A stretch of 64,000 nucleotides of DNA from Acutalibacteraceae bacterium (GCA_045603665.1 JAZUMO010000090.1:3503-67502), one strand, 5' to 3'; positions 1,580 through 62,404 are shown, counted from the stretch's first letter. Program-made: numbers and translations. The notes: generated by a model not told the origin, from the sequence alone.

Positions 1580-3415
1580 ATGAAAAGAATATCGATAAAG
1601 CTTTTACACGGTATTATTCTTTCTCTGTTCATCTTTCTGTTTACGACCAACGCCCTGGCGGGTGAGGTTTATACACACAATCTCATATACCAGTATGAGA
1701 AAGAATATTCAGAGGCAATGTTCGTAAAATACCTCGGAACGGGAACTTCTGTATATGTCCCTTCTTATATGGGCGGTTATCCCGTAACCTCTGTTGTAAG
1801 ACCTGCCTTTGAAAACAATAAAACCGTTGAAAGCGTCACTTTACCTTATACTGTAGAAGAGCTTGGAAACCATACCTTTTATAAAAGCACAGCGCTTAAA
1901 ACTGTCGATATGAGCAATTGCAGTAAGCTTACAAAAATCGGTGCTAACTGCTTTAACGGCTGTAAGAGTCTGACAACAGTCAAGCTTCCCAACAGTGTGT
2001 CACAGATCAGCTCAAATGCTTTTACGGATTGTACGTCTCTTGTCAGCATAACCTTGCCTAACAGTATCCGCTCCCTCGGCACCTCTGTTTTCAGCGGATG
2101 CAGTAAGCTTTCAAGCATAACTTTGCCGAGCAGTCTTACAACTCTCAGCTCCTTCACCTTCTCCTCCTGCTACGCACTCAAGGAGGTAAGACTTTCCGCA
2201 GGTATGAAAACAATCAGCTCAAATGCTTTCTTCAACTGCTACAGTATTGAAAGCCTGTATATTCCGAAAACACTCACAACCATAAACACTGATGCCTTCA
2301 ACTGTTCTTCAGTAAAAAACATTTATTATGCAGGCTCGAAGGCAGAATGGAACAGCATATCTATTGCAGAAAACAATAAAAGTGTTTTATCAAAGGCAAC
2401 CATCCATTATCTCGGTGAGCCTCATGTCCATGAGCATAAGAAAACCGTTACACCCGCATCCTGTACAGCTGACGGAAAAACAATCTACAGATGTGATTGC
2501 GGAAACACCTACTCAGAGATTATTAAAAAGTCAGGACATATTTTTTCAGATGTTCCGGCAGAAAAAGCAACAATGAAAAAAGACGGTCTTTCATTAAGAT
2601 ATTGCAAAAACTGTTCATATTCAGAGAAAAGAAATATTTATGCAATATCTCAAGTCACACTTGCAGCGGACAAATTTACCTATAATGGAAAAAACTGTGT
2701 TCCCGATGTAACAGTTAAGGACAGTAAGGGCATCTCATTAAAGAAAAACAGTGATTATATCCTTACATATCCTAAAATCTCAAAGGCTGCAGGTACATAC
2801 ACTGTCACAGTAACCTTCAAGGGCAATTATTCAGGCTCGAAAAAGCTCACCTACAAGGTTGTCCCTGACAAGCCCGGAAAACTCACAGCAGATACATCGG
2901 CTTCCGCTATCAAGCTTAAATGGTCGGCTGTCAAAGGAGCCAACGGATACAAAATTTACATTTACAACTCAAAGGGAAAGCTGCAATACACCGAAACAAC
3001 CGCAAAAACAGCCTTCAAGTTCACCGGCTTAAAGAAAGCTACGGTCTATAAATTCAAGATCAAGGCATATATTAAGTCCGGTAAAAATAAAATATGGTCG
3101 GATGCCACGGGATATTTTACAACTGCGACCTCGCCCTCGGCGCCATTACTCAAGGCTGTCGGTGAAAAAGGAAGGGTAAAGCTTTCCTGGACAAAGCAAA
3201 AGGGTGCGGACGGTTACATTGTTTATATGTCAGCCGATAAAAACGGTAAATTCAAATCCGTCTCAAACGAAGAAGGCGTCGCTAATCTTAGCATGACAAA
3301 AAAGGGACTTAAAAACAAAAAGAATTACTTCTTTAAGGTAAGAGCATATAAGCTTGCAGGGAAAGCAAAAATTTACAGCAGTTATTCAAAAGTAGTCAAA
3401 GTGAAAACAAAATAA
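1580..3415 (+). CDS. Secreted surface protein: signal peptide, BspA-type leucine-rich repeats, Cys-repeat modules, Ig-like region, two fibronectin type III domains
   Basis: RBS AAAGGAGG lies upstream. Signal peptide MKRISIKLLHGIILSLFIFLFTTNALA. Repeated ~22-aa LRR units (L..I.LP.S...IG..AF..C..L). Fn3 signatures LKWSAVKGANGYKIYIYN and LSWTKQKGADGYIVYM. Confidence 0.85.
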   Translation: MKRISIKLLHGIILSLFIFLFTTNALAGEVYTHNLIYQYEKEYSEAMFVKYLGTGTSVYVPSYMGGYPVTSVVRPAFENNKTVESVTLPYTVEELGNHTFYKSTALKTVDMSNCSKLTKIGANCFNGCKSLTTVKLPNSVSQISSNAFTDCTSLVSITLPNSIRSLGTSVFSGCSKLSSITLPSSLTTLSSFTFSSCYALKEVRLSAGMKTISSNAFFNCYSIESLYIPKTLTTINTDAFNCSSVKNIYYAGSKAEWNSISIAENNKSVLSKATIHYLGEPHVHEHKKTVTPASCTADGKTIYRCDCGNTYSEIIKKSGHIFSDVPAEKATMKKDGLSLRYCKNCSYSEKRNIYAISQVTLAADKFTYNGKNCVPDVTVKDSKGISLKKNSDYILTYPKISKAAGTYTVTVTFKGNYSGSKKLTYKVVPDKPGKLTADTSASAIKLKWSAVKGANGYKIYIYNSKGKLQYTETTAKTAFKFTGLKKATVYKFKIKAYIKSGKNKIWSDATGYFTTATSPSAPLLKAVGEKGRVKLSWTKQKGADGYIVYMSADKNGKFKSVSNEEGVANLSMTKKGLKNKKNYFFKVRAYKLAGKAKIYSSYSKVVKVKTK

Positions 3416-43029: not shown

Positions 43030-44739
43030 CTATTTGAATATTTTTGTGATAAGCTCAAAGAGCCATTTGAGTAAAGCAGTTACTGCAACAAAAATCTTTC
43101 CGTATTTATCCTTCGGATTGTCGAGTCTTTCTTCTGCCTCCCAATTTTCCGTATCACAGTTTTCTGTTGTCATTGTCTCAATTTCACCGTCGGAATCCTC
43201 GTCGGGATTGGTGTAAGAATAAACAACAAACTGTGAGGGCCAGCAGGAATTGTTGATTGTAACCTTTTCCTCAGATGAAGCAATTTCATAAAGGAGTCTT
43301 AATTCCCAATCAGACCAATTGGAATGGCTGGAGCCCTTTATAAACCAGGTACTTTCGGGGAAAAGACAGGTTGAAGCGTCAATCTGACCATCGGGAGAAA
43401 TATACTTACCGAGACCTGCTTCTTCCTTTGCGGCAATATAATCAGCGGGAAGGTCGTTATAAATTGTGCCCGTTGTTGCACCGAAGGATGAACGGCCGAC
43501 TGAAGCAAACTGGTCAGAAATAAGATAGTTTGTCTCACAGATGGGAAGAGTCTGGAAGCCGTATTTTGAAATTACACCGAAATTAATGCCGCTGCCGACA
43601 GCGTTTGTAAGAATTTCGGGAATTCTTTGGCGGACAACAGTGTTATAATTTTCAAGCTTTGAAATAAGACCTGCATATTCTTTTCTCTTTTCACTGCCGT
43701 CGGGACCGAATACATATTCCATAGCTGTACTATAGTCCTGGGGAGATACGCAAGCCCAGTAATTAGGCCATGTGTAGAAGGTTGAAAGAGCAAGTGCTGA
43801 GGTTACACCCTCAACCAGCTTGTAATAAATCCAGTCCTTACCCTTGCCGATAACTGTATCAAGCACACCGGTTCTGTCAAGCATTTCGAGAGTTGTGTTG
43901 ATAAATCCGTCAATATTGAACATTCCGATTGCACCGCAATCCTTAAGTGTTCTGTTAATTGCGGCAGCATCAATATTGAACTTACCGCTGATTGCTTCGC
44001 TGAGCATTTCTGCACCGCTTACAACGCTTCCGTCAAAGGCAATACCTCTGATACTTTCAGCTGCGTGCTCGGGATAAGAAGCAAGATAAGCAGTAACAAC
44101 ATTTGTGCCGAGACAGCTGGCAACAATACCAACCTCACCGCAGCCTGTTGAAGCTATAATATCGTCGATATAAGACTTGAGCTCGCCTGCACTTTCAATG
44201 GGATCAAGTCTCCAGTCATAGTAGAACCAATATCTGTCGTGAACATAGTATTTAACACCTTCAGAGGTGCGCCATGCCTGGTCGTTATGTCTGATGTTGT
44301 TCATTTTATTGATTCTCTCCTGTCTCAGACCGGTGCCGTACTGTGCGTTACCGTCCTTGTCGAGAAGTGAATTTTCAAAAAGCTCACTGATTTCAGTCTG
44401 GAGATTTTTATAATAGGGATCCCAATTGTCGTTAAGCAGACCGTCAATGAGGAAAGGCATAAGAATATTGGCTATTGATTCAAGAAGTGCGCTGTCATCC
44501 TCATCCTCTTCTTCGTCATCACTGTCAAGAATTGAAGCAAAATCCTTGTAATGGAAAACCTTATTGCCGTTTTTGTCAACAAGCTTTTCGCCGTCGCCTG
44601 AGATACGGATTACAGGAATATCACTCAAGCTCTGAGAAATCCATTCTGTCGGCTTGGCATATGCTGTCACAGACCAGACGCCGATAAGCATTATGAGAGC
44701 AAGAAAAAACGAAAGAGATTTTTTTATATTTCTTTTCAT
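43030..44739 (-). CDS. Secreted LCAT/PGAP1-like alpha/beta-hydrolase paralog 1 (Cys at nucleophile position), C-terminal hydrophobic tail
   Basis: GGAGG lies 9 nt before ATG 44739 (MKRNIKKSLSFFLALIMLIGVWSVTAYA signal peptide). YDWRLDP motif; elbow IVASCLG (Cys codon 44113-44115); SDQFAS and SSHSNW as candidate Asp and His; tail IFVAVTALLKWLFELITKIFK. Confidence 0.75.
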   Translation of the reverse strand: MKRNIKKSLSFFLALIMLIGVWSVTAYAKPTEWISQSLSDIPVIRISGDGEKLVDKNGNKVFHYKDFASILDSDDEEEDEDDSALLESIANILMPFLIDGLLNDNWDPYYKNLQTEISELFENSLLDKDGNAQYGTGLRQERINKMNNIRHNDQAWRTSEGVKYYVHDRYWFYYDWRLDPIESAGELKSYIDDIIASTGCGEVGIVASCLGTNVVTAYLASYPEHAAESIRGIAFDGSVVSGAEMLSEAISGKFNIDAAAINRTLKDCGAIGMFNIDGFINTTLEMLDRTGVLDTVIGKGKDWIYYKLVEGVTSALALSTFYTWPNYWACVSPQDYSTAMEYVFGPDGSEKRKEYAGLISKLENYNTVVRQRIPEILTNAVGSGINFGVISKYGFQTLPICETNYLISDQFASVGRSSFGATTGTIYNDLPADYIAAKEEAGLGKYISPDGQIDASTCLFPESTWFIKGSSHSNWSDWELRLLYEIASSEEKVTINNSCWPSQFVVYSYTNPDEDSDGEIETMTTENCDTENWEAEERLDNPKDKYGKIFVAVTALLKWLFELITKIFK

Positions 44740-44778
44740 TTGTATTTTCCTCCTATAGAATATATCTTTCATAGTTAT

Positions 44779-44806
44779 ATTATATTAAAAAATGTAAAAA
44801 AGTAAA
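44779..44806 (-). promoter_or_regulatory. Candidate promoter of LCAT-like gene 1
   Basis: Minus strand TTTACT, 16 nt, TATAAT, about 40 nt upstream of the start codon. Confidence 0.5.
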
Positions 44807-44893
44807 TATATTTATTGAAAAACGTTAATAATTTTTTAAGAGCTATAAATATTTTGCAGATTTCAGAAAAATGAACTATCTTTATCAATGATA

Positions 44894-45115
44894 CAGTCGG
44901 GTGCGGCTGTCCTGCCCATGCTTATTCACTTTTCCCTACTACTTATTACGAGCTTGCGAGTAACAAGGTTCTCCGAAACAAAGAAATCTTTGATTTCGTC
45001 TTGTTTCGTGAGGTTCTTATTACTTTCAAAAATCGACCCGAAGATTAGTGGAGAGTGAATAGTGAAGAAGTAAAAAGTAAAATCGACGAACCTCTGTCGA
45101 AATTCGTCGATTTTT
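44894..45115. repeat. Structured intergenic module, copy A (GTGAATA subtype) ending in the terminator of LCAT-like gene 2
   Basis: GC box cagtcGGGTGcGGcTGTCCtGCCc. Left arm CTTATTCACTTTTCCCTACTACTTATTAC. Inner hairpins CGAAACAAAGAAATCtttGATTTCgtCTTGTTTCG. Loop box AAAAATCGAC. Right arm GAGTGAATAGTGAAGAAGTAAAAAGTAAAA. Terminator AAAATCGACGAA-cctctgtcgaaa-TTCGTCGATTTTT (45079-45115). Confidence 0.7.
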
Positions 45116-45124
45116 ATGTATGTG

Positions 45125-46801
45125 TTATTTCTTAAATAATGATATCAGGAAATTTATCAGCGCTGTAAACCATCTGATAAGAACTGTAAATCTTGAAGTT
45201 GTATCTGTGGTATCCTTGCTGACATCCTTGTTTTCATCGGTAAGAGGTGTGAGAATTCCTACCTGCTCAACCTTACCGTGTGACATTTCTTCAAAAGTAG
45301 GCTCATAATACATAAACTGTGAATATGTGCCGTGAAGACCTGTGAAGGATTCCGTTGCTTTAATATAAGCATCATCATAGAAAAGGTCAAGTGCCATATA
45401 ATCCACACTGTGGGGATAGGTGTCGTGCTTGAGTTCTTTTATGTACCAGGTGTAATCGGCAAAGGGTGCAGTTGAGCCGTCAACCATTTTATCTGCCGAG
45501 ATATACTTGCCGAAGCCTGCTTCAACTCTTCCGGCAATATAATCATCGGAAAGCTTGCCCTTTAACTCTGAGGTTGTGGCACCCTCAAAGCTCTGTTTAC
45601 GAAGAGATACTACACCGTCACCGAGAAGATCGCTTTCTTCAATAACGGGATACATCTGGTCGCCGTATTTGGTCAGAATATATACCTTTACACCGGCATT
45701 CTGCATTTCCTTGAGCGTTGAAACAGCGGCTTTTTTAATTTCGTTATAACCGTAAATCTTATCAATAAGCTTATCATATTTGCCGTCAGCATTATCGCTT
45801 CCGAGCACAAATTCAACAGCTTCGTCTATTACCTCATCACTTACCATACCCCACCAACCGGGACACTGTCCAAAGACTTCACGGATAAGACGAGGCAAAA
45901 GATTAAGAGATATTTTATCATAGATACCCATAATAAAATCTGTTCCGCCTTCAAGAAGTCCGGTAAATGTTGCGAGATTGACTGTTTGCTTAACCAGGTC
46001 AAGAACGGGGCTTGTATCAATAAAGGTGTTTACAAAGCGGTTCAATCCATCAGGATCAAGATTAACCTTATTGGTATATACCTGATCTGCAATTTCAGCA
46101 CCCATAGCAATACTGTTATACATTATAACGCTTTCGACTTCGTTTTTTGCCTCTTCTGCAAACATATTGAGATATGCATTGACAATAACATTACCCTCAC
46201 AGCGACAGAGAATATTAACCTTGTCATGGCCTGTGCTTTTCTTAACTGCGTCAACAAAGCGTTTAAAATCCTTCGCATTTTCTCTGGGGTCAAGACGCAT
46301 ATCATACTGGAACTGTATGTGCTGAGCCCAGCTGATAGCATCGTTTGTATGACTGGTGTTTCTGCCGCTGTACCTTTTTAACAGATTCTCAATCTGATAT
46401 TCTGTCTGGATACCGGTGATATTTCCCTCGCCCTTTTCACCGTCATCGTTGAGCTTATAGCCGTCATAAATAGGTACGATTTCCTCTAAAAGAATATCAC
46501 AGTACTCATCCCACTCGTCAGTTAAAAGAGCTGCACCGAGAGCAGGGAGAATATTTGACGCTGCTTCGATGACAGAGTCTGTGCCGCCGGAAAGATTGGT
46601 TTCAGCCATATTTTCACTGCCGGTACCGAGAGACGGATCTTTGTAGATGTTTGTTCTGCCCTTAACGTAAATAACAGGGGTGACACCGCAGTTGCATTTG
46701 TAACCGTCTGCTGCAAAAACTGTAAAGCATACGGAAGCGGTGCTTACAAGCATAATTACGGTAAGTAATAATGCAAATGATTTTCTGAGTGTTCCTTTCA
46801 T
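45125..46801 (-). CDS. Secreted LCAT/PGAP1-like alpha/beta-hydrolase paralog 2 (Cys at nucleophile position), C-terminal hydrophobic tail
   Basis: GGAGG lies 8 nt before ATG 46801 (MKGTLRKSFALLLTVIMLVSTASVCFTVFA). YDMRLDP motif; elbow ILCRCEG (Cys codon 46199-46201); GDGVVS and LKHDTY as candidate Asp and His; tail RFTVLIRWFTALINFLISLFKK. Confidence 0.75.
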   Translation of the reverse strand: MKGTLRKSFALLLTVIMLVSTASVCFTVFAADGYKCNCGVTPVIYVKGRTNIYKDPSLGTGSENMAETNLSGGTDSVIEAASNILPALGAALLTDEWDEYCDILLEEIVPIYDGYKLNDDGEKGEGNITGIQTEYQIENLLKRYSGRNTSHTNDAISWAQHIQFQYDMRLDPRENAKDFKRFVDAVKKSTGHDKVNILCRCEGNVIVNAYLNMFAEEAKNEVESVIMYNSIAMGAEIADQVYTNKVNLDPDGLNRFVNTFIDTSPVLDLVKQTVNLATFTGLLEGGTDFIMGIYDKISLNLLPRLIREVFGQCPGWWGMVSDEVIDEAVEFVLGSDNADGKYDKLIDKIYGYNEIKKAAVSTLKEMQNAGVKVYILTKYGDQMYPVIEESDLLGDGVVSLRKQSFEGATTSELKGKLSDDYIAGRVEAGFGKYISADKMVDGSTAPFADYTWYIKELKHDTYPHSVDYMALDLFYDDAYIKATESFTGLHGTYSQFMYYEPTFEEMSHGKVEQVGILTPLTDENKDVSKDTTDTTSRFTVLIRWFTALINFLISLFKK

Positions 46802-46880
46802 TATCATATCCTCCTGATAAAAATTAATAAACCGCTAAGATTCGAAGATACTCCGAGCCTTGACTGTTAATTATAAATTA

Positions 46881-46909
46881 ATTATATCAAAATAAAATTA
46901 ATTTGTAAA
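46881..46909 (-). promoter_or_regulatory. SigA-type promoter of LCAT-like gene 2
   Basis: Minus strand TTTACA, 17 nt, TATAAT. Confidence 0.6.
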
Positions 46910-46920
46910 TAGAGAATTTT

Positions 46921-46992
46921 AAATTTAAAATCCGAGCACTTTACCCGGAAAGTAAAAATCGACGAACTTCTGTCGAAATTCGTCGATTTTTT
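46921..46992. repeat. Eroded module relic (copy B) plus terminator of the 47060-47557 gene
   Basis: AAAATCCGAGCACTTTACCCGGAAAG resembles the copy C terminator AAAATCCGCCCACTTTCGTGAACGG. It is followed by AAAAATCGACGAA-cttctgtcgaaa-TTCGTCGATTTTTT (46954-46992), which differs by 1 nt from the copy A terminator. Confidence 0.6.
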
Positions 46993-47030
46993 GTGTTTAC
47001 AGCTTAATTTAGCAACAACCCGATAAATTG
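46993..47030. repeat. Conserved 3'-flank box, copy 1
   Basis: GTGTTTACAGCTTAATTTAGCAACAACCCGATAAATTG lies between the gene stop (47060) and its terminator. Near-identical copies are at 47796 and 48985. Confidence 0.7.
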
Positions 47031-47059
47031 AAATATATATGATTGTTTGTTTTTTAATA

Positions 47060-47557
47060 TCAATGAACAATTTTTGATACGCAATAGTATTCTGAAGTTG
47101 TTTTGTTATAAACCAACAGTAGATTTTCTTGACCATATAAAAGAGTATTGCGAATGTCTATATTATAGTATATGCCCTTATCCAAATCATATAGACAATA
47201 AAATATTTCATCCGACTCCTTATAATCAAAAAGAAATCCATTAAAATATACTTCATTTATAAGTTTTGTTTCTTCATTGGACACCATTTGCCATACATCG
47301 ATTGACAAATCATTATTTATCTTTTCTATTTCTTTGTTATTAAGCTTATACTTCCAAATTCTATGGTCTTCATTTGGACTAATAATAGTAATACCTTTAT
47401 ATCCATTTGCTACACCTTCGGGATAAAAAACAGTTATTGCACTTTCATCAACTATAAAATTAGAAAATGTAAAAGTATACAACCTAAAAAATATAATAGG
47501 AATGCTAACCAAAAACAACAAAGCTATAAAAACTATTCTGCGTTTGCCTGTTTTCAT
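47060..47557 (-). CDS. Hypothetical membrane-anchored protein
   Basis: GGAGGTGA lies before ATG 47557 (the track start is GTG). MKTGKRRIVFIALLFLVSIPIIFF signal-anchor. AT-rich. I recognise no family. Confidence 0.6.
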   Translation of the reverse strand: MKTGKRRIVFIALLFLVSIPIIFFRLYTFTFSNFIVDESAITVFYPEGVANGYKGITIISPNEDHRIWKYKLNNKEIEKINNDLSIDVWQMVSNEETKLINEVYFNGFLFDYKESDEIFYCLYDLDKGIYYNIDIRNTLLYGQENLLLVYNKTTSEYYCVSKIVH

Positions 47558-47593
47558 AATTATCACCTCCAGAAATTATTATTTATAGATGCA

Positions 47594-47622
47594 ATTATAT
47601 CACACCCGATACAAAATTACAA
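47594..47622 (-). promoter_or_regulatory. SigA-type promoter of the 47060-47557 gene
   Basis: Minus strand TTGTAA, 17 nt, TATAAT. The -35 abuts the GC box of module C. Confidence 0.65.
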
Positions 47623-47792
47623 TCGGGTTAGGGTGTCCTGCCTATAATTATTCATTATTCATCAGCAAAGCGACTTCAATATTCATTATTCATTTGAAAA
47701 TCCGTTCTTGCACTAAATGAATAATGAATGATGAATATTGAATAATGAATAATACAAACGAAAATCCGCCCACTTTCGTGAACGGATTTTCG
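47623..47792. repeat. Structured intergenic module, copy C (TGAATAA subtype)
   Basis: GC box TCGGGTTAGGGTGTCCTGCC. Left arm ATTATTCATTATTCA [bulge TCAGCAAAGCGACTTC] AATATTCATTATTCATTT. Loop GAAAATCCGTTCTTGCACT. Right arm AAATGAATAATGAATGATGAATATTGAATAATGAATAAT. Terminator CGAAAATCCG-cccactttcgtgaa-CGGATTTTCG (47759-47792). Confidence 0.75.
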
Positions 47793-47795
47793 TTT

Positions 47796-47834
47796 GTGTT
47801 TACAGCTTAAAATAGCAACAACTCGATAAATTGG
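47796..47834. repeat. Conserved 3'-flank box, copy 2
   Basis: GTGTTTACAGCTTAAAATAGCAACAACTCGATAAATTGG lies between the small-ORF region and its terminator. Confidence 0.7.
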
Positions 47835-47869
47835 AATTTACAACTTTCTTTTATTCACGAAAGCACTAA

Positions 47870-48034
47870 TCAGCATAGCAATAATACCGACAAGCAGCAT
47901 ACAGAGGGTTGATTGCAAAGAATAGTAAAAAGCAAATAGCCATTCCTGCACCACCTGCAAATGTTACTGCAAGCCAAGGGAAACCTATCATCAAAATCAA
48001 TGCGGATATAGTCCAAGCAATCAGTTTTTTTCAT
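47870..48034 (-). CDS. Small ORF of uncertain frame (54-aa Cys-rich peptide as written; alternative frames encode hydrophobic helices)
   Basis: AAAGGAGTGTGATTGT-ATG is nearly identical to the RBS context of the lipoprotein gene upstream. ATG is followed by A7. See the finding for the frame problem. Confidence 0.35.
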   Translation of the reverse strand: MKKTDCLDYIRIDFDDRFPLACSNICRWCRNGYLLFTILCNQPSVCCLSVLLLC

Positions 48035-48066
48035 ACAATCACACTCCTTTGTCAAATTGGAATAGT

Positions 48067-48747
48067 TTAATCTATTGCATTACCGTTTTCGTCAATGAAG
48101 TATTCAGTAACAGTTTCATTATCAATGATTTTCAGTTCGTATTGCCCTTTATAGAAAAACAGATTGTAGGTGTACATCAGTTTATCTGCATCATAATCGT
48201 AGGAATACTGAATTGTTTCCTTTATAAACTCTTCATCACTTTTTAGTTTCTTCTGTTCTTGGGTGTGTTTTTCCTTAAAAGTTGCAACTCTTGAGACAAT
48301 ATCATCTTCATCAACAGTTTTGCTTATATTGGAATATGCGACAGAATTTATTACACCATTTTCGTAATGGAATGTAATGCTTTTATCTGTCAGGATTTCG
48401 TTGTTGATAACATATCTAAACTGAACCAATCCCGTGGTCTGTTGCTCATCGTAAAAATGAACCATATACTCCCAATTACTGTTCAACACATTGGGGTACT
48501 GATAGTTTATCAACGAAACAAGTTCGGGCAAAACACCATCCGTATATTTTGTATAACTTGTTTCTGCAAGGTTAATTTCAATGTAATCAACCTCTGCCAT
48601 CACCATTTCTTGACCATCGGTCAAATATTCACTATCCACACCAAGTTTGTGGTTTAATTTCAAGGTAGTTTTTGTGTCTGTTGTACTACACCCAACGAGA
48701 CCAAAAATAAGAACAACAGCAAATGCCAATACTATTATCCTTTTCAT
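48067..48747 (-). CDS. Hypothetical lipoprotein
   Basis: AAAGGAGTATGATTGT-ATG at 48747. MKRIIVLAFAVVLIFGLVGC has the lipobox LVGC. I recognise no family. Confidence 0.7.
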   Translation of the reverse strand: MKRIIVLAFAVVLIFGLVGCSTTDTKTTLKLNHKLGVDSEYLTDGQEMVMAEVDYIEINLAETSYTKYTDGVLPELVSLINYQYPNVLNSNWEYMVHFYDEQQTTGLVQFRYVINNEILTDKSITFHYENGVINSVAYSNISKTVDEDDIVSRVATFKEKHTQEQKKLKSDEEFIKETIQYSYDYDADKLMYTYNLFFYKGQYELKIIDNETVTEYFIDENGNAID

Positions 48748-48787
48748 ACAATCATACTCCTTTTCCAAATTCTTATTTGTCGAGTTG

Positions 48788-48816
48788 ATTGTATCACATA
48801 TAATCTAAAATTACAA
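48788..48816 (-). promoter_or_regulatory. SigA-type promoter of the lipoprotein/small-ORF unit
   Basis: Minus strand TTGTAA, 17 nt, TACAAT. The -35 abuts the GC box of module D. Confidence 0.6.
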
Positions 48817-48978
48817 TCTGGTGCGGGTGTCCCACCAATTATTCATTATTAATTATTCATCAGCAAAGCGATTTCATTATTCATTAAGAAAAGTCGCATA
48901 ACAGCAATGAATAATGAAAAATGAACATTGAATAATGAATAATAAAAAAAGAAAAGCCACACTATCGTGCGACTTTTC
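48817..48978. repeat. Structured intergenic module, copy D (TGAATAA subtype)
   Basis: GC box TCTGGTGCGGGTGTCCCACC. Left arm AATTATTCATTATTAATTATTCA [TCAGCAAAGCGATTT] CATTATTCATT. Loop AAGAAAAGTCGCATAACAGC. Right arm AATGAATAATGAAAAATGAACATTGAATAATGAATAAT. Terminator GAAAAGCCAC-actatc-GTGCGACTTTTC (48951-48978). Confidence 0.75.
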
Positions 48979-48984
48979 TTTTTT

Positions 48985-49010
48985 GTGTTTACAGCTTAAA
49001 ATAGCAACAA
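48985..49010. repeat. Conserved 3'-flank box, copy 3
   Basis: GTGTTTACAGCTTAAAATAGCAACAA lies between the stop at 49020 and the terminator at 48951-48978. Confidence 0.7.
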
Positions 49011-49019
49011 ATCAAAAAT

Positions 49020-49514
49020 TCAACCAACACAAATCCATTTTCCAAAATCAAAAAACTTCGCTGTATCCCTATTGTACGGAATTAAAATTTGAGTATTTAT
49101 ATCATAACTTCCTACAATATTTTTTGAAAAAATACTTTTTCGTGGTATGTATTTAAACGTAGTGTTAGAAACAAGTATAAATTTATTTCTGGAATAAACT
49201 CCTTCTGCTTCTTCAAATATAGCATAATAAACAGTACGTTGATTATTTACAAAAGCTATTTTTTTATTAAACAACACAGACTGAAAACCCGTTTCATTTA
49301 ATATTACATCGGTCAACAATCTGCGAGCAGAATATGTAAGAAAAAGTGAACATAGAATATAAACTAGCACACAGCTACCTAATACAATAAACATTTCCAA
49401 ATCTTTGTTTAATATCGAACATACAACAACAGCAATAGTAATCATAATATCAATACCAAGAATAAATTTTACCTGCTTTTTCCAATATATAGAAGTAGCA
49501 ATCTTTGTTTCCAT
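49020..49514 (-). CDS. Hypothetical two-TM membrane protein
   Basis: ATG at 49514 after AAAGGAGTG. Helices FILGIDIMITIAVVVCSIL and MFIVLGSCVLVYILCSLFL are followed by a ~95-aa soluble tail. I recognise no family. Confidence 0.6.
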   Translation of the reverse strand: METKIATSIYWKKQVKFILGIDIMITIAVVVCSILNKDLEMFIVLGSCVLVYILCSLFLTYSARRLLTDVILNETGFQSVLFNKKIAFVNNQRTVYYAIFEEAEGVYSRNKFILVSNTTFKYIPRKSIFSKNIVGSYDINTQILIPYNRDTAKFFDFGKWICVG

Positions 49515-49551
49515 CTTAACACTCCTTTGTATAATTCTAATTCATATAAAA

Positions 49552-49580
49552 ATTATACCACATATATTATTGATTTGCAA
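49552..49580 (-). promoter_or_regulatory. SigA-type promoter (extended -10) of the 49020-49514 gene
   Basis: Minus strand TTGCAA, 17 nt, TATAAT with TGG directly upstream of the -10. Confidence 0.65.
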
Positions 49581-49600
49581 TTCTCCTAATTTCATAAATT

Positions 49601-49812
49601 CCGTTTGCCCGAAGGGCAACATCATTGTGCCGAAGGCACACTTCATTGCATCAGCACTTCATTTGCCGTAAGGCAACTTCATTCCTTTATGTACGCTTTG
49701 CTGATAATGAAGTTGACAGCAAGCTGTCAAATGAAGTACTCGCTTCGCTCGTAATGAAGTTATGTCCTGCGGACATAAATGAAAAATCGACTTGTCGAAA
49801 CAAGTCGATTTT
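49601..49812. repeat. Structured intergenic module, copy E (AATGAAG subtype with GC mini-hairpins) ending in the tRNA-operon terminator
   Basis: Five mini-hairpins (49605-49619, 49626-49640, 49663-49676, 49713-49730, 49762-49776) are separated by CATCATT/CTTCATT units (left half) and AATGAAG units (right half). Central GTACGCTTTGCTGAT is the inverted form of TCAGCAAAGCG in C and D. Terminator AAAAATCGACTTG-tcgaaa-CAAGTCGATTTTT (49782-49812). Confidence 0.7.
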
Positions 49813-49887
49813 TGGCAGGGATGGCAGGATTCGAACCTACGAATGCAACAGTCAAAGTGTTGTGTCTTACCGCTTGACGACATCCCT
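49813..49887 (-). tRNA. tRNA-Gln (anticodon UUG)
   Basis: Cloverleaf read by hand: acceptor AGGGATG/CATCCCT, anticodon stem CAACA/TGTTG with loop CTTTGAC, T-arm GTAGG-TTCGAAT-CCTGC, encoded CCA. Confidence 0.9.
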
Positions 49888-49899
49888 ATAAATAAAAAA

Positions 49900-49977
49900 T
49901 GGGGTGGATAATCGGAGCCGAACCGACGACCTCCAGGGCCACAACCTGGCGCTCTAACCAACTGAGCTATATCCACC
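49900..49977 (-). tRNA. tRNA-His (anticodon GUG) with encoded G-1
   Basis: Acceptor GTGGATA/TATCCAC, an extra 5' G opposite discriminator C, anticodon loop TTGTGGC in stem CCAGG/CCTGG, encoded CCA. Confidence 0.9.
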
Positions 49978-49983
49978 ACTTAT

Positions 49984-50060
<77 letters not shown>

Positions 50061-50067
50061 ATATTTT

Positions 50068-50141
50068 TGGAGCGGGTGATGGGAATCGAACCCACACGAC
50101 CAGCTTGGAAGGCTGGGATTCTACCATTGAACTACACCCGC
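50068..50141 (-). tRNA. tRNA-Gly (anticodon UCC)
   Basis: Acceptor GCGGGTG/CACCCGC, anticodon stem CCAGC/GCTGG with loop CTTCCAA, T-loop TTCGATT, encoded CCA. Confidence 0.9.
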
Positions 50142-61547: not shown

Positions 61548-61580
61548 AAACAAACACTACCTCACTATAATTATCAAGTT

Positions 61581-61609
61581 ATTATATCATACATTAATAA
61601 TTAAGACAA
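61581..61609 (-). promoter_or_regulatory. SigA-type promoter of the ruvCAB-ecf-truA unit
   Basis: Minus strand TTGTCT, 17 nt, TATAAT. Confidence 0.6.
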
Positions 61610-61630
61610 GAGAAAAAGGGTAAAAAGTGC

Positions 61631-61666
61631 AAAAAGAAAATAGGCAGTTTCATTGAACCGCCTATT
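61631..61666 (-). terminator. Rho-independent terminator after the 61696-62097 gene
   Basis: Minus strand AATAGGC-ggttcaatgaaact-GCCTATT followed by TTCTTTTT. Confidence 0.6.
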
Positions 61667-61695
61667 AAATGACTGATTGAACTCAGGAAAATTTT

Positions 61696-62097
61696 TCAGT
61701 TAAAGTCTACTTCACTAATCTTATTTTTAGTTCTGCTTTTGATACCGTATATTATTATATTCGGCACAACAAAAACCGAGCTTATTAAAAGTTCAACAGG
61801 AAACAAAAAAGTCATAATTACAACCACAACCACAGGCCAATGTTTAAACCCGATAGCCGATTTTATAATCATTGCAGTCATGAAAAAATTAAACCATCCT
61901 CCGGCAAAACTTCCGGACAATAAAGCTCTGAACAGCCAGACACCTATAGTATCCTTTTCAAGATCCATATTAATTATATGAATTTCACTTATGGGACGAC
62001 CAATCGCCAAAGATATAAACTCCGCCAGAAACATACACGAAAATGCAACAAGTAAGATTATGAATGCTTTTTTAAACATTTCGGAAGGAACTCTCAT
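61696..62097 (-). CDS. Hypothetical polytopic membrane protein
   Basis: The track start at 62106 is GTG within the RBS GAGGTG; ATG is at 62097. About 4 hydrophobic helices. I recognise no family. Confidence 0.55.
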   Translation of the reverse strand: MRVPSEMFKKAFIILLVAFSCMFLAEFISLAIGRPISEIHIINMDLEKDTIGVWLFRALLSGSFAGGWFNFFMTAMIIKSAIGFKHWPVVVVVIMTFLFPVELLISSVFVVPNIIIYGIKSRTKNKISEVDFN

Positions 62098-62115
62098 AGC
62101 TATCACCTCAGGCTC

Positions 62116-62144
62116 ATACTAACATAAAAAGAAACTACTGTCAA
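62116..62144 (-). promoter_or_regulatory. Candidate promoter of the 61696-62097 gene
   Basis: Minus strand TTGACA, 17 nt, TAGTAT. Confidence 0.55.
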
Positions 62145-62166
62145 TGAAAGGCGAAAAAACAATCAC

Positions 62167-62318
62167 TTACAATACTGCGGGTGTCCCGCCCACACTTATT
62201 CACTAATACTTCTTACCTATTACTTCGCCAAAAATTGACCCGAAGGAAAAGTGAATAGTGAATAGTAAAGAAGTAAAAAGTAAAATCAACAGCCTTCTGT
62301 CGAAGACTGTCGATTTTT
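62167..62318. repeat. Structured intergenic module, copy F (GTGAATA subtype) ending in the tRNA-Leu terminator
   Basis: TTACAA plus GC box TACTGCGGGTGTCCCGCCCAC. Left arm CTTATTCACTAATACTTCTTACCTATTACTTCGCC. Loop box AAAAATTGACCCGAAGG. Right arm AAAAGTGAATAGTGAATAGTAAAGAAGTAAAAAGTAAAA. Terminator AAAATCAACAG-ccttctgtcgaaga-CTGTCGATTTTT. Confidence 0.7.
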
Positions 62319-62404
62319 GGTGCCGGTGGCGGGGGTCGAACCCGCACGGTATCGCTACCAACGGATTTTGAGTCCGCCTCGTCTGCCAATTCCAACACAC
62401 CGGC
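62318..62404 (-). tRNA. tRNA-Leu (anticodon CAA), long variable arm
   Basis: Acceptor GCCGGTG/CACCGGC, anticodon loop CTCAAAA in stem GCGGA/TCCGT, variable arm TGGTAGCGATACCG, T-arm GCGGG-TTCGACC-CCCGC, encoded CCA. Confidence 0.88.

Follow-up and report, generated by a model that had tools for sequence, protein, structure and literature searches.

Six intergenic modules in the window

The analysed stretch (the window, 64,000 nucleotides from an Acutalibacteraceae bacterium) carries six intergenic sites, A to F, which a preliminary description had grouped by architecture and all of which are present at the coordinates it assigned to them (Table 1). All predicted promoters and terminators in the window lie on the minus strand, and its remaining intergenic regions are ordinary and lack the features described here. 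The GC-rich box attributed to the modules was found in A, C, D and F (pattern matches at 44905, 47631, 48825 and 62179), while E is box-less; these four matches to the degenerate pattern, all on the plus strand, compare with 1.3 expected in the window, which is weak evidence alone. Heptamer arms and their complementarity were recovered by a repeat finder (families D2, D9 and D14), and an inverted-repeat search returned the arms as inverted pairs of 17-23 nt at 82-95%. The proposed folding into imperfect hairpins was borne out as well, as all modules beat dinucleotide shuffles on both strands (z -2.9 to -9.9). The hairpin with a GC stem and T-tract, read as terminating the upstream gene or tRNA of the minus strand, was predicted as a terminator in all six modules, in each case on the minus strand alone.

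Several details needed revision. TTACAA can be read as a minus-strand -35 hexamer (TTGTAA) in C and D, where a 17-nt spacer and a TG-extended -10 accompany it, but not in F, which has no -10 partner. The 16-nt bulge of C recurs in D (family D14, 93%) and is inverted in E as suggested, but only for about 11-12 nt of its length (approximately 49695-49706, read directly). Further, the idea of one architecture with several subtypes holds in that the family is genuine, but E forms a separate multi-hairpin subfamily without a GC box, with further copies at L111 (90%), L087, L062, L092, L202 and L203. The repeat unit is also larger than first thought and runs from the leader and promoter (e.g. 47572) to a conserved stretch past the terminator (47839; families D3 and D5).

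Module A is of the F type but carries, at 44950-45015, a nested hairpin of 66 nt with the direct repeat CTTATTAC on both flanks; this variant is also found at L006, L018 (twice) and L031, making five unlinked places in all. The centre of A is a copy of the proximal arm of its terminator and a complement of GTCGATTTTT at 45106-45115. The terminator of relic B is 97% identical to that of A, and the terminator of F replaces the one that relatives carry at that position. Small hairpins have stable-looking loops, for example the apex CCUUCGGG of A and F in gene sense (read directly).

Table 1 Features of modules A to F and adjacent predicted promoters. Coordinates refer to the window.
Feature	Position	Strand	Basis
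A, degenerate GC box GGGTGCGGCTGTCCTGCC	44899-44916	+	box pattern
A, left (G-poor) arm, type 1	44921-44949	+	inverted-repeat search, folding
A, nested 66-nt hairpin insertion (44950-45015) and second CTTATTAC copy (45016-45023)	44950-45023	+	
A, centre X AAAAATCGAC	45028-45037	+	inverted pair I5
A, right (C-poor) arm	45046-45078	+	repeat family D4, inverted repeats
A, predicted intrinsic terminator of gene 45125-46807	45079-45114	-	16 pairs, minus strand only
Predicted promoter TTTACA-17-TGnTATAAT of gene 45125-46807, left of relic B	46881-46909	-	promoter call
B (relic), small hairpin, type-1 right-arm remnant, predicted terminator	46931-46991	-	family D7, terminator call
B, conserved stretch past terminator, TGTGTTTACAGCTTAA...CCGATAAATTGAAAT, right end of repeat unit	46990-47048	+	family D3
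C, conserved leader (left-end inverted repeat) and predicted promoter TTGTAA-17-TGaTATAAT of gene 47060-47566	47572-47622	-	families D5, D6
C, GC box GGGTTAGGGTGTCCTGCC	47625-47642	+	box pattern
C, left arm, TTATTCA units, one-sided bulge/mini-hairpin TCAGCAAAGCGACTTC	47647-47695	+	family D14, folding
C, centre X GAAAATCCGTTC	47696-47707	+	perfect complement of terminator distal arm GAACGGATTTTC
C, right arm, TGAATAA units	47715-47753	+	family D2, inverted repeats
C, predicted intrinsic terminator	47754-47797	-	20 pairs, two G.U in gene sense only
C, spacer TGTGTTTACAGCTTAAAATAGCAACA and right-end inverted repeat TCGATAAATTGGAATTT	47793-47839	+	family D3; abuts stop codon of upstream ORF
D, leader (left-end inverted repeat AAATTCTTATTTGTCGAG) and predicted promoter TTGTAA-17-TGaTACAAT of gene 48067-48768	48767-48816	-	families D5, D6
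D, GC box TGGTGCGGGTGTCCCACC	48819-48836	+	box pattern
D, left arm, centre X (AAGAAAAGTCGCA at 48886-48898), right arm	48838-48943	+	repeats, folding
D, predicted intrinsic terminator	48945-48984	-	terminator call
D, conserved spacer past terminator, TGTGTTTACAGCTTAAAATAGCAACAA	48982-49010	+	family D3
Predicted promoter TTGCAA-17-TGgTATAAT of gene 49020-49514, same promoter family, left of E	49552-49580	-	family D6
E, box-less subfamily: small GC hairpins with CTTCAT (left) and ATGAAG (right) between	49601-49781	+	
E, predicted terminator, directly after tRNA-Gln	49782-49813	-	terminator call
Predicted promoter TTGACA-17-TAGTAT of gene 61696-62106, outside the repeat	62116-62144	-	promoter call
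F, TTACAA remnant of family promoter -35 and GC box CTGCGGGTGTCCCGCC	62168-62190	+	box pattern
F, left arm, centre X (AAAAATTGAC at 62230-62239), right arm, type 1	62195-62281	+	family D4, folding
F, predicted terminator, directly after tRNA-Leu	62282-62317	-	terminator call

Modules A to F belong to a dispersed repeat family

A pattern search for the GC box and heptamer detected at least 120 stretches, nearly all from Acutalibacteraceae, Clostridia and Ruminococcus gut MAGs. Pattern-selected loci number 6-8 per genome in five genomes (counted from contig prefixes); part of the uniformity seen among these loci stems from their selection by the box pattern. The family core combines the box ATCGGGTGCGGGTGTCCCGCC, which forms a hairpin, with G-poor repeat units of roughly 7 nt after it. 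Loci and window together yielded 139 boxes, 85 of them identical to the 18-nt sequence GGGTGCGGGTGTCCCGCC, and one pair of the box stem covaries (C-G 68, A-U 5, U-A 5). The box was absent from 0.98 Mb of sequence from relatives with ClpC identity of 69% or lower, and the box pattern had no matches in phages or plasmids. Surrounding the core are mosaic parts: a terminator, a complementary arm, a sigma-A promoter with a conserved leader and 17-nt inverted repeats flush with neighbouring ORFs. Copies are dispersed over unlinked loci in many genomes and are 75-93% identical between genomes and species, compared with 65-80% for syntenic genes. The contigs of one MAG end at inward-facing boxes. No known family was recognised in the original description, and none was matched in Rfam at gathering or permissive thresholds. 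Modules A to F are real copies of an undescribed modular DNA repeat family of uncultured gut Clostridia.

Position and transcription signals

Nearly all boxes are intergenic (135/139), and between tandem genes one orientation prevails (49 vs 13). For 55 of the 109 boxes with enough flank, a strict criterion places a terminator in gene sense no more than 300 nt away on the heptamer side, compared with 23 in the opposite sense. A promoter of the form TTGNNN/16-18 nt/TANNNT adjoins 40 of the 139 boxes, leaving 99 without an adjacent consensus promoter. The family sigma-A promoter reads TTGTAA, 17 nt, TGnTATAAT and carries the conserved leader, the combined consensus being ACAAATTCTTATTTGTCGAnnTGATTATATCACAnnTAATCTGAAATTACAATC and then the box; the distance from box to start codon is 64-77 nt in 17 of 26 cases. 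At the other end of the unit, stop codons are found at a distance of 0-25 nt from the right-end repeat. Terminator and promoter activity of the modules is predicted at the consensus level. Terminator stems show compensatory changes and have G.U pairs in gene sense only, with plus-strand stems carrying C.A mismatches; covariation within modules is confined to the terminators and the one box pair.

Arrays of 3-4 modules occur at L015 and L018, and the bracketed genes are diverse and accessory, including XRE regulators, GH13/31/39/43, GNAT proteins and orphans. Many boxes are single and located next to housekeeping genes.

Arm pairing and mobility

The long arms show no compensatory evolution. 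Arms form equally stable duplexes with their own partner and with those of other copies (self -21.9 vs cross -22.2 kcal/mol, permutation p ~0.7), the complementarity of the arms is a general property of the repeat units, and RNAalifold found zero variation in arm pairs.

Exchange of modules is illustrated by the slot between SDR/tRNA-Leu and ruvCAB, where variable DNA begins exactly at the tRNA 3' end. The window has a type-1 module and a 136-aa gene at this slot. Relatives carry an E-type module, family promoter and 115-aa gene (L202), an E-type module inside which the contig stops (L203), a remnant and a GNAT gene (L204), or a D-type terminator and a lipase-like gene (L205); L207 and L208 have no module there. 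Target-site duplications were absent from the ends of seven full units. No transposase or integrase is encoded in the window, and none was found among 23 scanned promoter-linked ORFs adjoining boxes.

Interpretation

The two alternatives originally put forward were a structured RNA and a MITE-like DNA element. A DNA repeat fits better, since the family is scattered over unlinked loci in many genomes, is mosaic with nested insertions propagating as units, and varies in presence and type at an orthologous site. A structured RNA is unsupported for the long hairpin, given generic arm complementarity and invariant arm pairs, and a classical MITE is not demonstrated either, with neither target-site duplication nor transposase found. 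We consider it somewhat probable that the modules are MITE/BIME-like mosaic intergenic repeats, restricted to a lineage mostly labelled Acutalibacteraceae, which act as transcription-unit junctions in the flexible genome. Terminator and promoter signals are present, both on the gene-sense strand, and the unit brackets ORFs tightly. At an orthologous slot, its gain, loss or replacement goes along with that of accessory genes.

In gene sense (window minus strand), the first part of a full unit is a 17-nt end repeat just past the upstream stop codon, after which come a spacer and the intrinsic terminator. Next are the pyrimidine-rich arm, built of ~7-nt units, a centre copying one arm of the terminator, and the purine-rich arm. 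The conserved GC-box hairpin and the sigma-A promoter follow, and last is a conserved leader that forms the inverted repeat of the first part, with RBS and start codon of the next ORF immediately behind it. We hypothesize that this unit halts transcription coming from the upstream gene or tRNA and that the following gene is then transcribed anew. When read-through occurs, the AU-rich hairpin of 35 bp together with the GC hairpin might provide a backup barrier in the RNA or a processing site, e.g. for RNase III; they may also, or instead, be what is recognised by the machinery that copies or recombines the element. Spread would occur with single-gene accessory cassettes through recombination or horizontal transfer among related species, and presumably not by a classical cut-and-paste transposase. 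It should be noted that a terminator-plus-promoter role leaves the GC box, the most conserved part, unexplained. About half of the 109 boxes lack a strict gene-sense terminator within 300 nt and 99/139 lack an adjacent consensus promoter, so the universal core does something beyond punctuation, or nothing. Instead of recent transfer, selection for a role as RNA or in protein binding could also explain why copies from different species are so similar.

It is possible, but unlikely, that the modules are non-autonomous transposable elements (MITE or REP/PATE-like hairpins) mobilised in trans by a transposase from another place in the genome, which would recognise either the hairpin of the GC box or the terminal inverted repeats of 17-19 nt, promoter and terminator being incidental, selected cargo. 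Terminal inverted repeats (ACAAATTCTTATTTGTCGA and TCGATAAATTGGAATTTAC) do bound the full unit, and the family is multi-copy, dispersed and intergenic. Nested insertions lie between short direct repeats, with the nested variant itself propagated, and the centre of each long hairpin duplicates one terminator arm, resembling duplication at a hairpin target. The covarying box pair and the contig breaks at inward-facing boxes in one MAG are also in line with transposition. However, the seven full units have no target-site duplication, no autonomous partner was seen and numerous copies, e.g. beside tRNA genes, have only one terminal repeat or none. The constant 64-77-nt distance between box and start codon is unexpected under random insertion, and subtypes are common to several species instead of being homogenised per genome.

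Cassette recombination is a quite improbable explanation. Here, the whole 150-290-bp imperfect palindrome would be a functional attC analogue, folded as single-stranded DNA, with a site-specific recombinase acting at the AAATTC/GAATTT end repeats and ORFs entering and leaving as cassettes beside tRNA genes. This would account for the inverted 17-mers bracketing ORFs within 0-25 nt, for arrays of small, co-oriented and mostly orphan or accessory ORFs, for one hairpin architecture with a one-sided bulge kept across sequence subtypes, and for the differing cassettes and module types at the tRNA-Leu slot. Box orientation is likewise biased with respect to gene direction, and hence also to replication direction. 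Nevertheless, no recombinase lies near the window arrays or among cassette genes, RYYYAAC/GTTRRRY core sites are not apparent by eye at module ends, and homologous recombination in conserved flanks can explain slot exchange. The modules also carry their own terminator and promoter, which integron cassettes do not, and the many single boxes beside housekeeping genes do not fit a cassette system.

We regard as very doubtful that the modules function as structured RNA, either a plus-strand small RNA extending from the box to a bidirectional terminator or a 3'- or 5'-UTR element with a functional long hairpin. Strong folding z-scores on both strands, stable-looking small-hairpin loops, the covarying pair of the box hairpin and high sequence conservation between species are consistent with this proposal, and the cassette mRNA leader and 3' flank would be complementary at 14/17 positions. 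Against it stand the lack of an Rfam match, long arms with invariant pairs and no compensatory evolution, C.A mismatches in plus-strand terminator stems, and zero plus-strand promoters pointing into a module among the promoter calls. In gene sense, arms and box lie past a strong terminator and ahead of the next promoter and would therefore be transcribed by read-through only; moreover, the element is missing from the orthologous site in relatives.

Finally, AT-rich low-complexity drift by ordinary terminators with local segmental duplication, to which the low-complexity heptamer arrays with generic complementarity, the weak enrichment of the box pattern in the window and a possible local duplication of C and D (families D3 and D5) might point, is already refuted by 75-93% identical modules at unlinked loci in dozens of other genomes, by 85 identical 18-nt boxes and by window intergenic regions without these features.

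Comparison with known systems

Correia elements (CREE/NEMIS) of Neisseria are multi-copy intergenic repeats of 100-160 bp with inverted ends. Their terminal inverted repeats measure 26 bp, they duplicate a TA target and they contain an IHF site. They carry outward promoters, can terminate transcription and alter neighbouring gene expression, and form long hairpins in read-through RNA that are cut by RNase III. The present family is similar in being composed of short multi-copy intergenic repeats with inverted ends and promoter and termination signals. For Correia elements, PMC11602168 cites Siddique et al. 2011 and Black et al. 1995. In contrast to them, our modules have no target duplication, contain heptamer arrays and a conserved GC hairpin as well as an intrinsic terminator of their own, and are unrelated in sequence and from another phylum.

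BOX elements of Streptococcus pneumoniae (boxA-boxB(n)-boxC) are modular, vary in internal unit number, are predicted to form stable hairpins and have no transposase of their own. Both families are thus modular intergenic Firmicute repeats with predicted hairpins and no own transposase, but they are unrelated in sequence, BOX modules measure 45-59 nt compared with the 7-nt units found here, and BOX has neither a defined terminator-plus-promoter pair nor tight ORF bracketing.

REP/BIME sequences of enterobacteria and pseudomonads are GC-rich imperfect palindromes in mosaics, extragenic, mostly downstream of genes and oriented to transcription. A conserved GC-rich palindrome within an extragenic mosaic and an orientation bias are shared features. 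However, REPs have a conserved GTAG at the 5' side, commonly form inverted pairs, are tied to a RAYT (Y1 transposase) gene and number in the hundreds, whereas here a single box without GTAG is flanked by AT-rich heptamers, no RAYT was seen and tens to ~100 copies per genome are estimated (extrapolated from 4 boxes in 64 kb).

Like integron attC sites (e.g. Vibrio cholerae repeats), the modules are imperfect palindromes between packed, co-oriented, mostly orphan ORFs, keep their architecture across sequence subtypes and have bulges on one arm. They differ in that no IntI was found in the window, no R''/R' core sites are apparent by eye, and units measure 150-290 bp compared with 57-141 bp for attC and include their own terminator and promoter. 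Firmicutes are not known to carry integrons.

Phage morons are likewise accessory single-gene units, each preceded by a promoter and followed by an intrinsic terminator. They have no shared bounding repeat family, whereas the boundary sequence described here is chromosomal, has no phage match and is itself a conserved, repeated entity.

A family of intergenic repeats in gut Clostridia

The recurrent intergenic module is a real finding, and neither Rfam nor the searchable literature describes the family it defines. The preliminary description had recognised no known RNA family in the modules, and this agrees with an Rfam search of the window, in which tRNAs alone reached the gathering score. 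The best non-tRNA match scored 29 bits against a threshold of 58 (44700-49900, E-value limit 10), and all such matches are at chance level. The literature search returned nothing specific on the box sequence or on corresponding MITE or intergenic repeats in Ruminococcus or Clostridia.

Scanning one genome per species with the pattern GGGTGTCCNNCCN{1,7}TTATTCAYT identified at least 120 matching stretches. Among the matches listed, all but about five chance ones are located in gut MAGs of ruminant, horse and human, labelled Acutalibacteraceae, Clostridia, Ruminococcus or Oscillospiraceae, with single genomes yielding six to eight of these listed loci, as judged by contig prefixes. Phage and plasmid collections contained no matches, and the sole pattern match in IMG/VR is a chance one without the remaining box and heptamers. 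No box was found in 0.98 Mb around the ClpC homologues of relatives with at most 69% ClpC identity; these box-free, ClpC-anchored metagenome loci were rejected as orthologous empty sites, the relatives being too distant.

Setting and organization of the six sites

All genes around the modules are encoded on the minus strand (referred to as gene sense), so that each module follows the 3' end of one gene or tRNA and precedes the 5' end of the next. Direct inspection of the window confirmed the module sequences originally quoted. A repeat finder likewise recovered the complementary arms as inverted pairs of 17-23 nt at 82-95%, together with direct-repeat families representing the common right arms (D2), box and left arm (D9), the bulge (D14), the homology of A and F (D4) and the near-identical terminators of A and B (D7, 97%). 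As claimed, the modules can fold: all of them beat dinucleotide shuffles (z -2.9 to -9.9), the minus strand usually being better. The single architecture initially assigned to all six sites holds for the terminator, present throughout, but not for the GC box, which E lacks, and the extents first assigned cover only part of a repeat unit that reaches past them on both sides (families D3 and D5). Module A is of the F type but contains a 66-nt hairpin nested within it and flanked by CTTATTAC as a direct repeat. One small ORF of this module (44888-45058) was discarded as an explanation, as it is not conserved in other modules and the 7-nt period cannot be coding. The remaining intergenic regions of the window contain plain terminators and none of the module features.

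Modules and associated features in the window and in the tRNA-Leu/ruvC slot
Feature	Position	Strand	Description
Module A	44894-45115		type 1
Module B	46921-46992		relic
Module C	47623-47792		type 2
Module D	48817-48978		type 2
Module E	49601-49812		box-less subfamily
Module F	62167-62318		type 1
Centre X of long hairpins	47696-47707, 48886-48898, 45028-45037, 62230-62239		repeats terminator proximal arm
Predicted promoter of C		minus	TTGTAA-17-TATAAT, TG before -10
Predicted promoter of D		minus	TTGTAA-17-TACAAT, TG before -10
Predicted promoter left of E		minus	TTGCAA-17-TATAAT, TG before -10
tRNA-Gln-His-Arg-Gly	49813-50141
tRNA-Leu	62318-62404
Slot, window	61554-62317		type-1 module and 136-aa membrane protein
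Slot, L202			E-type module, family promoter, 115-aa gene
Slot, L203			E-type module, contig ends within module
Slot, L204			remnant and GNAT gene
Slot, L205			D-type terminator only and lipase-like gene
Slot, L207 and L208			no module; downstream genes differ

The array at 43.0-49.8 kb lies between the tRNA cluster and ClpC, at one end, and GH123/peptidase genes, at the other end. The stretch at 46-50 kb forms a low G+C islet (0.34 compared with about 0.42 elsewhere) with small ORFs that have no Pfam match; this islet co-localizes with the array of cassettes that lies downstream of the tRNA cluster. Module A lies between two genes (43030-44772 and 45125-46807, minus strand) encoding paralogous secreted proteins of about 560-580 aa, both with a weak alpha/beta-hydrolase match; their homologues are module-flanked cassettes in L015, a locus from another genome, and occupy the tRNA-Leu/ruvC slot in L205. 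At 47843-48040 (minus strand), a small membrane-protein gene (MKKLIAWTISALILMIGFPWLAVTFAGG...LLVGIIAMLISAFVNKRKL) can be read only by bridging two frameshifts, one located at an A7 run right behind the ATG; either this is a cassette gene that has decayed, or the sequence contains homopolymer sequencing errors.

The GC box is nearly invariant

The core common to the family is (A)ATCGGGTGCGGGTGTCCCGCC followed by heptamer-type repeats. Allowing up to three substitutions, 139 boxes were collected from the pattern-selected loci and the window, 85 of which are exactly GGGTGCGGGTGTCCCGCC; 14 copies lack TTATTCA but have other G-poor repeats of ~7 nt behind the box, for example CTTCACT or TTTTCAA. 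The box palindrome, GGG-T-GCGGG-TGT-CCCGC-CC, is able to fold into a GC stem of 5 bp capped by a 3-nt loop, with one or two extra pairs past a bulged T. Standard pairs occupy 93.5% of cells in 88 distinct box sequences. One pair changes on both sides (C-G 68, A-U 5, U-A 5, U-G 3) and the others are nearly constant. The conserved ATCGGGT left of the box is unaccounted for by box pairing, and the wobble pairs leave the strand of the box undecided. Boxes are intergenic in 135 of 139 cases, and between tandem genes one orientation predominates (49 vs 13). The pieces around the core vary by subfamily: simple versions consist of box, repeats and terminator, to which the window types add a complementary arm and other genomes different hairpins. 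At six loci of other subfamilies (L013, L053, L093, L095, L098 and L099), the inverted repeat AAATTC...GAATTT makes a compact hairpin beside the heptamers, enclosing a GC stem with a GCAA or GTAA loop; in the window type, the same inverted repeat is split between the two module ends.

That the 21-nt GC box hardly varies would suggest that it has a specific partner, protein or processing enzyme, whose identity could reveal how the element spreads; no partner enzyme was found in the window or in the scanned module-adjacent ORFs. Three other identities were rejected. An intrinsic terminator would need a U tract, which is not consistently present on either side of the box; TTATTCACT is only a near-match to a DnaA box and TTATTCATT a worse one; and for DNA uptake sequences the copy number is too low, and uptake in Firmicutes is not sequence-specific.

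Predicted terminators and promoters bracket single ORFs

Each of the six modules contains a GC stem-loop and U tract in gene sense, and a consensus scan calls a terminator at every one of them on the minus strand only, in keeping with the terminator role first proposed for this hairpin. The stems show compensatory changes between subtypes; where their pairing departs from Watson-Crick, the gene strand has G.U and the opposite strand C.A. Of 109 boxes, 55 have a strict gene-sense terminator no more than 300 nt away on the repeat side, compared with 23 for the opposite sense. The conserved terminator loops at 45090-45103, 46966-46975, 49793-49800 and 62294-62303 contain TGTCGAA, which fits the Spo0A-box consensus TGNCGAA, although this may be a coincidence.

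The same scan places TG-extended minus-strand promoters left of B, C, D and E, and at C, D and left of E the hexamers are 17 nt apart and upstream of a gene, within the 16-18 nt characteristic of sigma-70/sigma-A promoters. The TTACAA preceding the box, previously read as a minus-strand -35 hexamer, is part of such a promoter in C and D but lies outside any promoter in F. The window-type left flank is conserved over ~52 nt as ACAAATTCTTATTTGTCGAnnTGATTATATCACAnnTAATCTGAAATTACAATC followed by the box, corresponding on the gene strand to TTGTAA, 17 nt, TGnTATAAT and a leader. This kind of predicted sigma-A promoter adjoins the box in 40 of 139 copies, and in 17 of 26 cases a start codon with ribosome-binding site is found 64-77 nt from the box. 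As read from sequence, both terminator and promoter functions are predictions.

Full units start with ACAAATTCTTATTTGTCGA and finish with TCGATAAATTGGAATTT, which constitute terminal inverted repeats. Past the terminator comes a spacer of one of two kinds and then TCGATAAATTGGAATTT, which is the leader's inverted repeat and lies 0-25 nt from the upstream ORF's stop codon. As a result, ORFs are tightly bracketed. The right end repeat is missing in many copies, for example beside tRNA genes. Arrays of three or four modules are found in L015 and L018, and the bracketed genes are diverse and accessory, including XRE regulators, GH13/31/39/43, GNAT, thioesterase and orphans; no transposase or integrase was present among the bracketed genes scanned or near modules in the window. 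Head-to-tail arrays of whole modules were seen at two other loci, L094 (about 2900-3365; three type-1 units spaced by 123 and 141 nt, with their junctions inside the terminator loop) and L051 (6030-6430; four boxes at intervals of 118-147 nt, accompanied by TTTTCAA repeats and a stretch of N), and may reflect real tandem amplification or assembly artefacts.

The long hairpin and its centre

One option initially put forward was an undescribed structured RNA. Arm complementarity is indeed real and conserved across copies, which follows from the arms being built from complementary repeat units, but it lacks compensatory support. Among 26 type-1 copies, arms pair no better with their own partner than with that of another copy (-21.9 vs -22.2 kcal/mol; permutation p about 0.7, either strand), and the arm pairs of 14 type-2 copies are invariant. 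Compensatory base changes are absent from the long helix in type-1 and type-2 arms and limited to the terminator and one box pair; the structured-RNA option is not supported for the long hairpin.

The central part of the long hairpin between the heptamer arms, centre X, is in every case a perfect complement to the distal arm of the terminator, and the proximal terminator arm carries two transitions tolerated as G.U in gene sense only. Centre X corresponds to the copy's own terminator class in 8/8 C-like and 7/7 D-like members of 15 aligned type-2 copies; L074 is a recombinant. Type-1 centres likewise track terminator class, and the pattern holds across genomes. Centre X could be the scar of a duplication at the terminator hairpin or provide an alternative pairing. 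A riboswitch-like antiterminator formed by X was rejected, as X is transcribed after the terminator in gene sense.

Copies across genomes and the tRNA-Leu/ruvC slot

Unlinked module copies are 75-93% identical between genomes, compared with 65-80% for syntenic genes at the DNA level. C and D are closer to their L018 counterparts (89.5% and 92%) than to each other, the nested-hairpin variant of A occurs in five unlinked places in four genomes, and the E type is found at no fewer than six other loci. Inward-facing boxes are also found at the ends of short contigs, most of which come from a single MAG, RUG14020; this fits a picture in which the assembly breaks at the repeat and would imply a high copy number in that genome. 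Box pairs of this kind were observed in L013, L053, L091 and L093 (MAG RUG14020) and in L003 (another MAG), and each of the four RUG14020 contigs (2.5-4.5 kb) has at least one box of its pair at a contig end. Between the boxes of the pairs found, no transposase was identified. Together, the identities, the recurrence of variants and the contig ends are read as evidence that the modules are repeats belonging to the flexible genome.

The interval from SDR and tRNA-Leu to ruvCAB, which holds module F in the window, was compared in relatives with 83-87% SDR identity, which gave the most direct test. This slot is hypervariable, four relatives each carrying a different single gene, with variation beginning precisely at the 3' end of the tRNA. 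The module terminator of the window takes the place of the relatives' terminator. The lipase-like gene of L205 has homologues that are module-flanked cassettes in the window and L015. The slot is filled, differently filled or module-free across relatives and gene content differs too, leaving no clean empty site. The mode of module spread, like the roles of box and arms, is something we infer.

Possible significance

We consider it unlikely that gut Clostridia have a gene-cassette system, so far unrecognised, for which the junction modules serve as recombination sites. In such a system, ORFs would enter and leave precisely at the AAATTC/GAATTT inverted repeats, or modules would be copied via their hairpins as single-stranded DNA; the enzyme would be encoded elsewhere and recognise the invariant GC-box hairpin, and unlike in integrons, every cassette would bring its own terminator and promoter.

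If our main reading of the modules holds, as mosaic intergenic repeats at the junctions between transcription units, a clade of abundant uncultured rumen and gut Clostridia would arrange part of its accessory genome as single-gene units separated by a common, portable terminator-hairpin-promoter junction. For annotation, the repeats would mark operon boundaries, promoters and terminators where transcriptomes are lacking. They would also break MAG assemblies and flag tRNA-adjacent hot spots exchanging glycoside hydrolases, regulators and orphan genes. The family would further represent a natural, compact insulator/promoter part for Clostridia.

Comparison with known element classes

Integron arrays consist of tightly packed, co-oriented and mostly promoterless ORFs separated by imperfect palindromes. 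In this family the packing, the common orientation and the palindromes are present, but the ORFs are not promoterless, each unit carrying a predicted TTGTAA-17-TATAAT promoter. No IntI or other recombinase was found in the 43.0-49.8 kb array, and no RYYYAAC ... GTTRRRY core was apparent by eye at the AAATTC.../...GAATTT ends. MITE-like features are the terminal inverted repeats at both ends of full units and a dispersed, many-copy, non-coding character at a size below about 500 bp. In contrast to MITEs, no target-site duplication is visible at seven full units. Neither a related autonomous IS nor a trans-acting transposase was found in the window or in module-adjacent ORFs. REP/BIME elements resemble the family in that its box is a conserved, extragenic, GC-rich imperfect palindrome, but the box is preceded by (A)ATC rather than GTAG; no Y1 transposase (RAYT) was found in the window or in the scanned module-adjacent ORFs. 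The family is best filed beside Correia, BOX and REP/BIME among the mosaic intergenic repeats of bacteria, from which it is distinguished by a near-invariant GC hairpin with heptamer arrays, by a predicted built-in pair of gene-sense terminator and sigma-A promoter, and by the tight bracketing of accessory ORFs in arrays beside tRNA genes.
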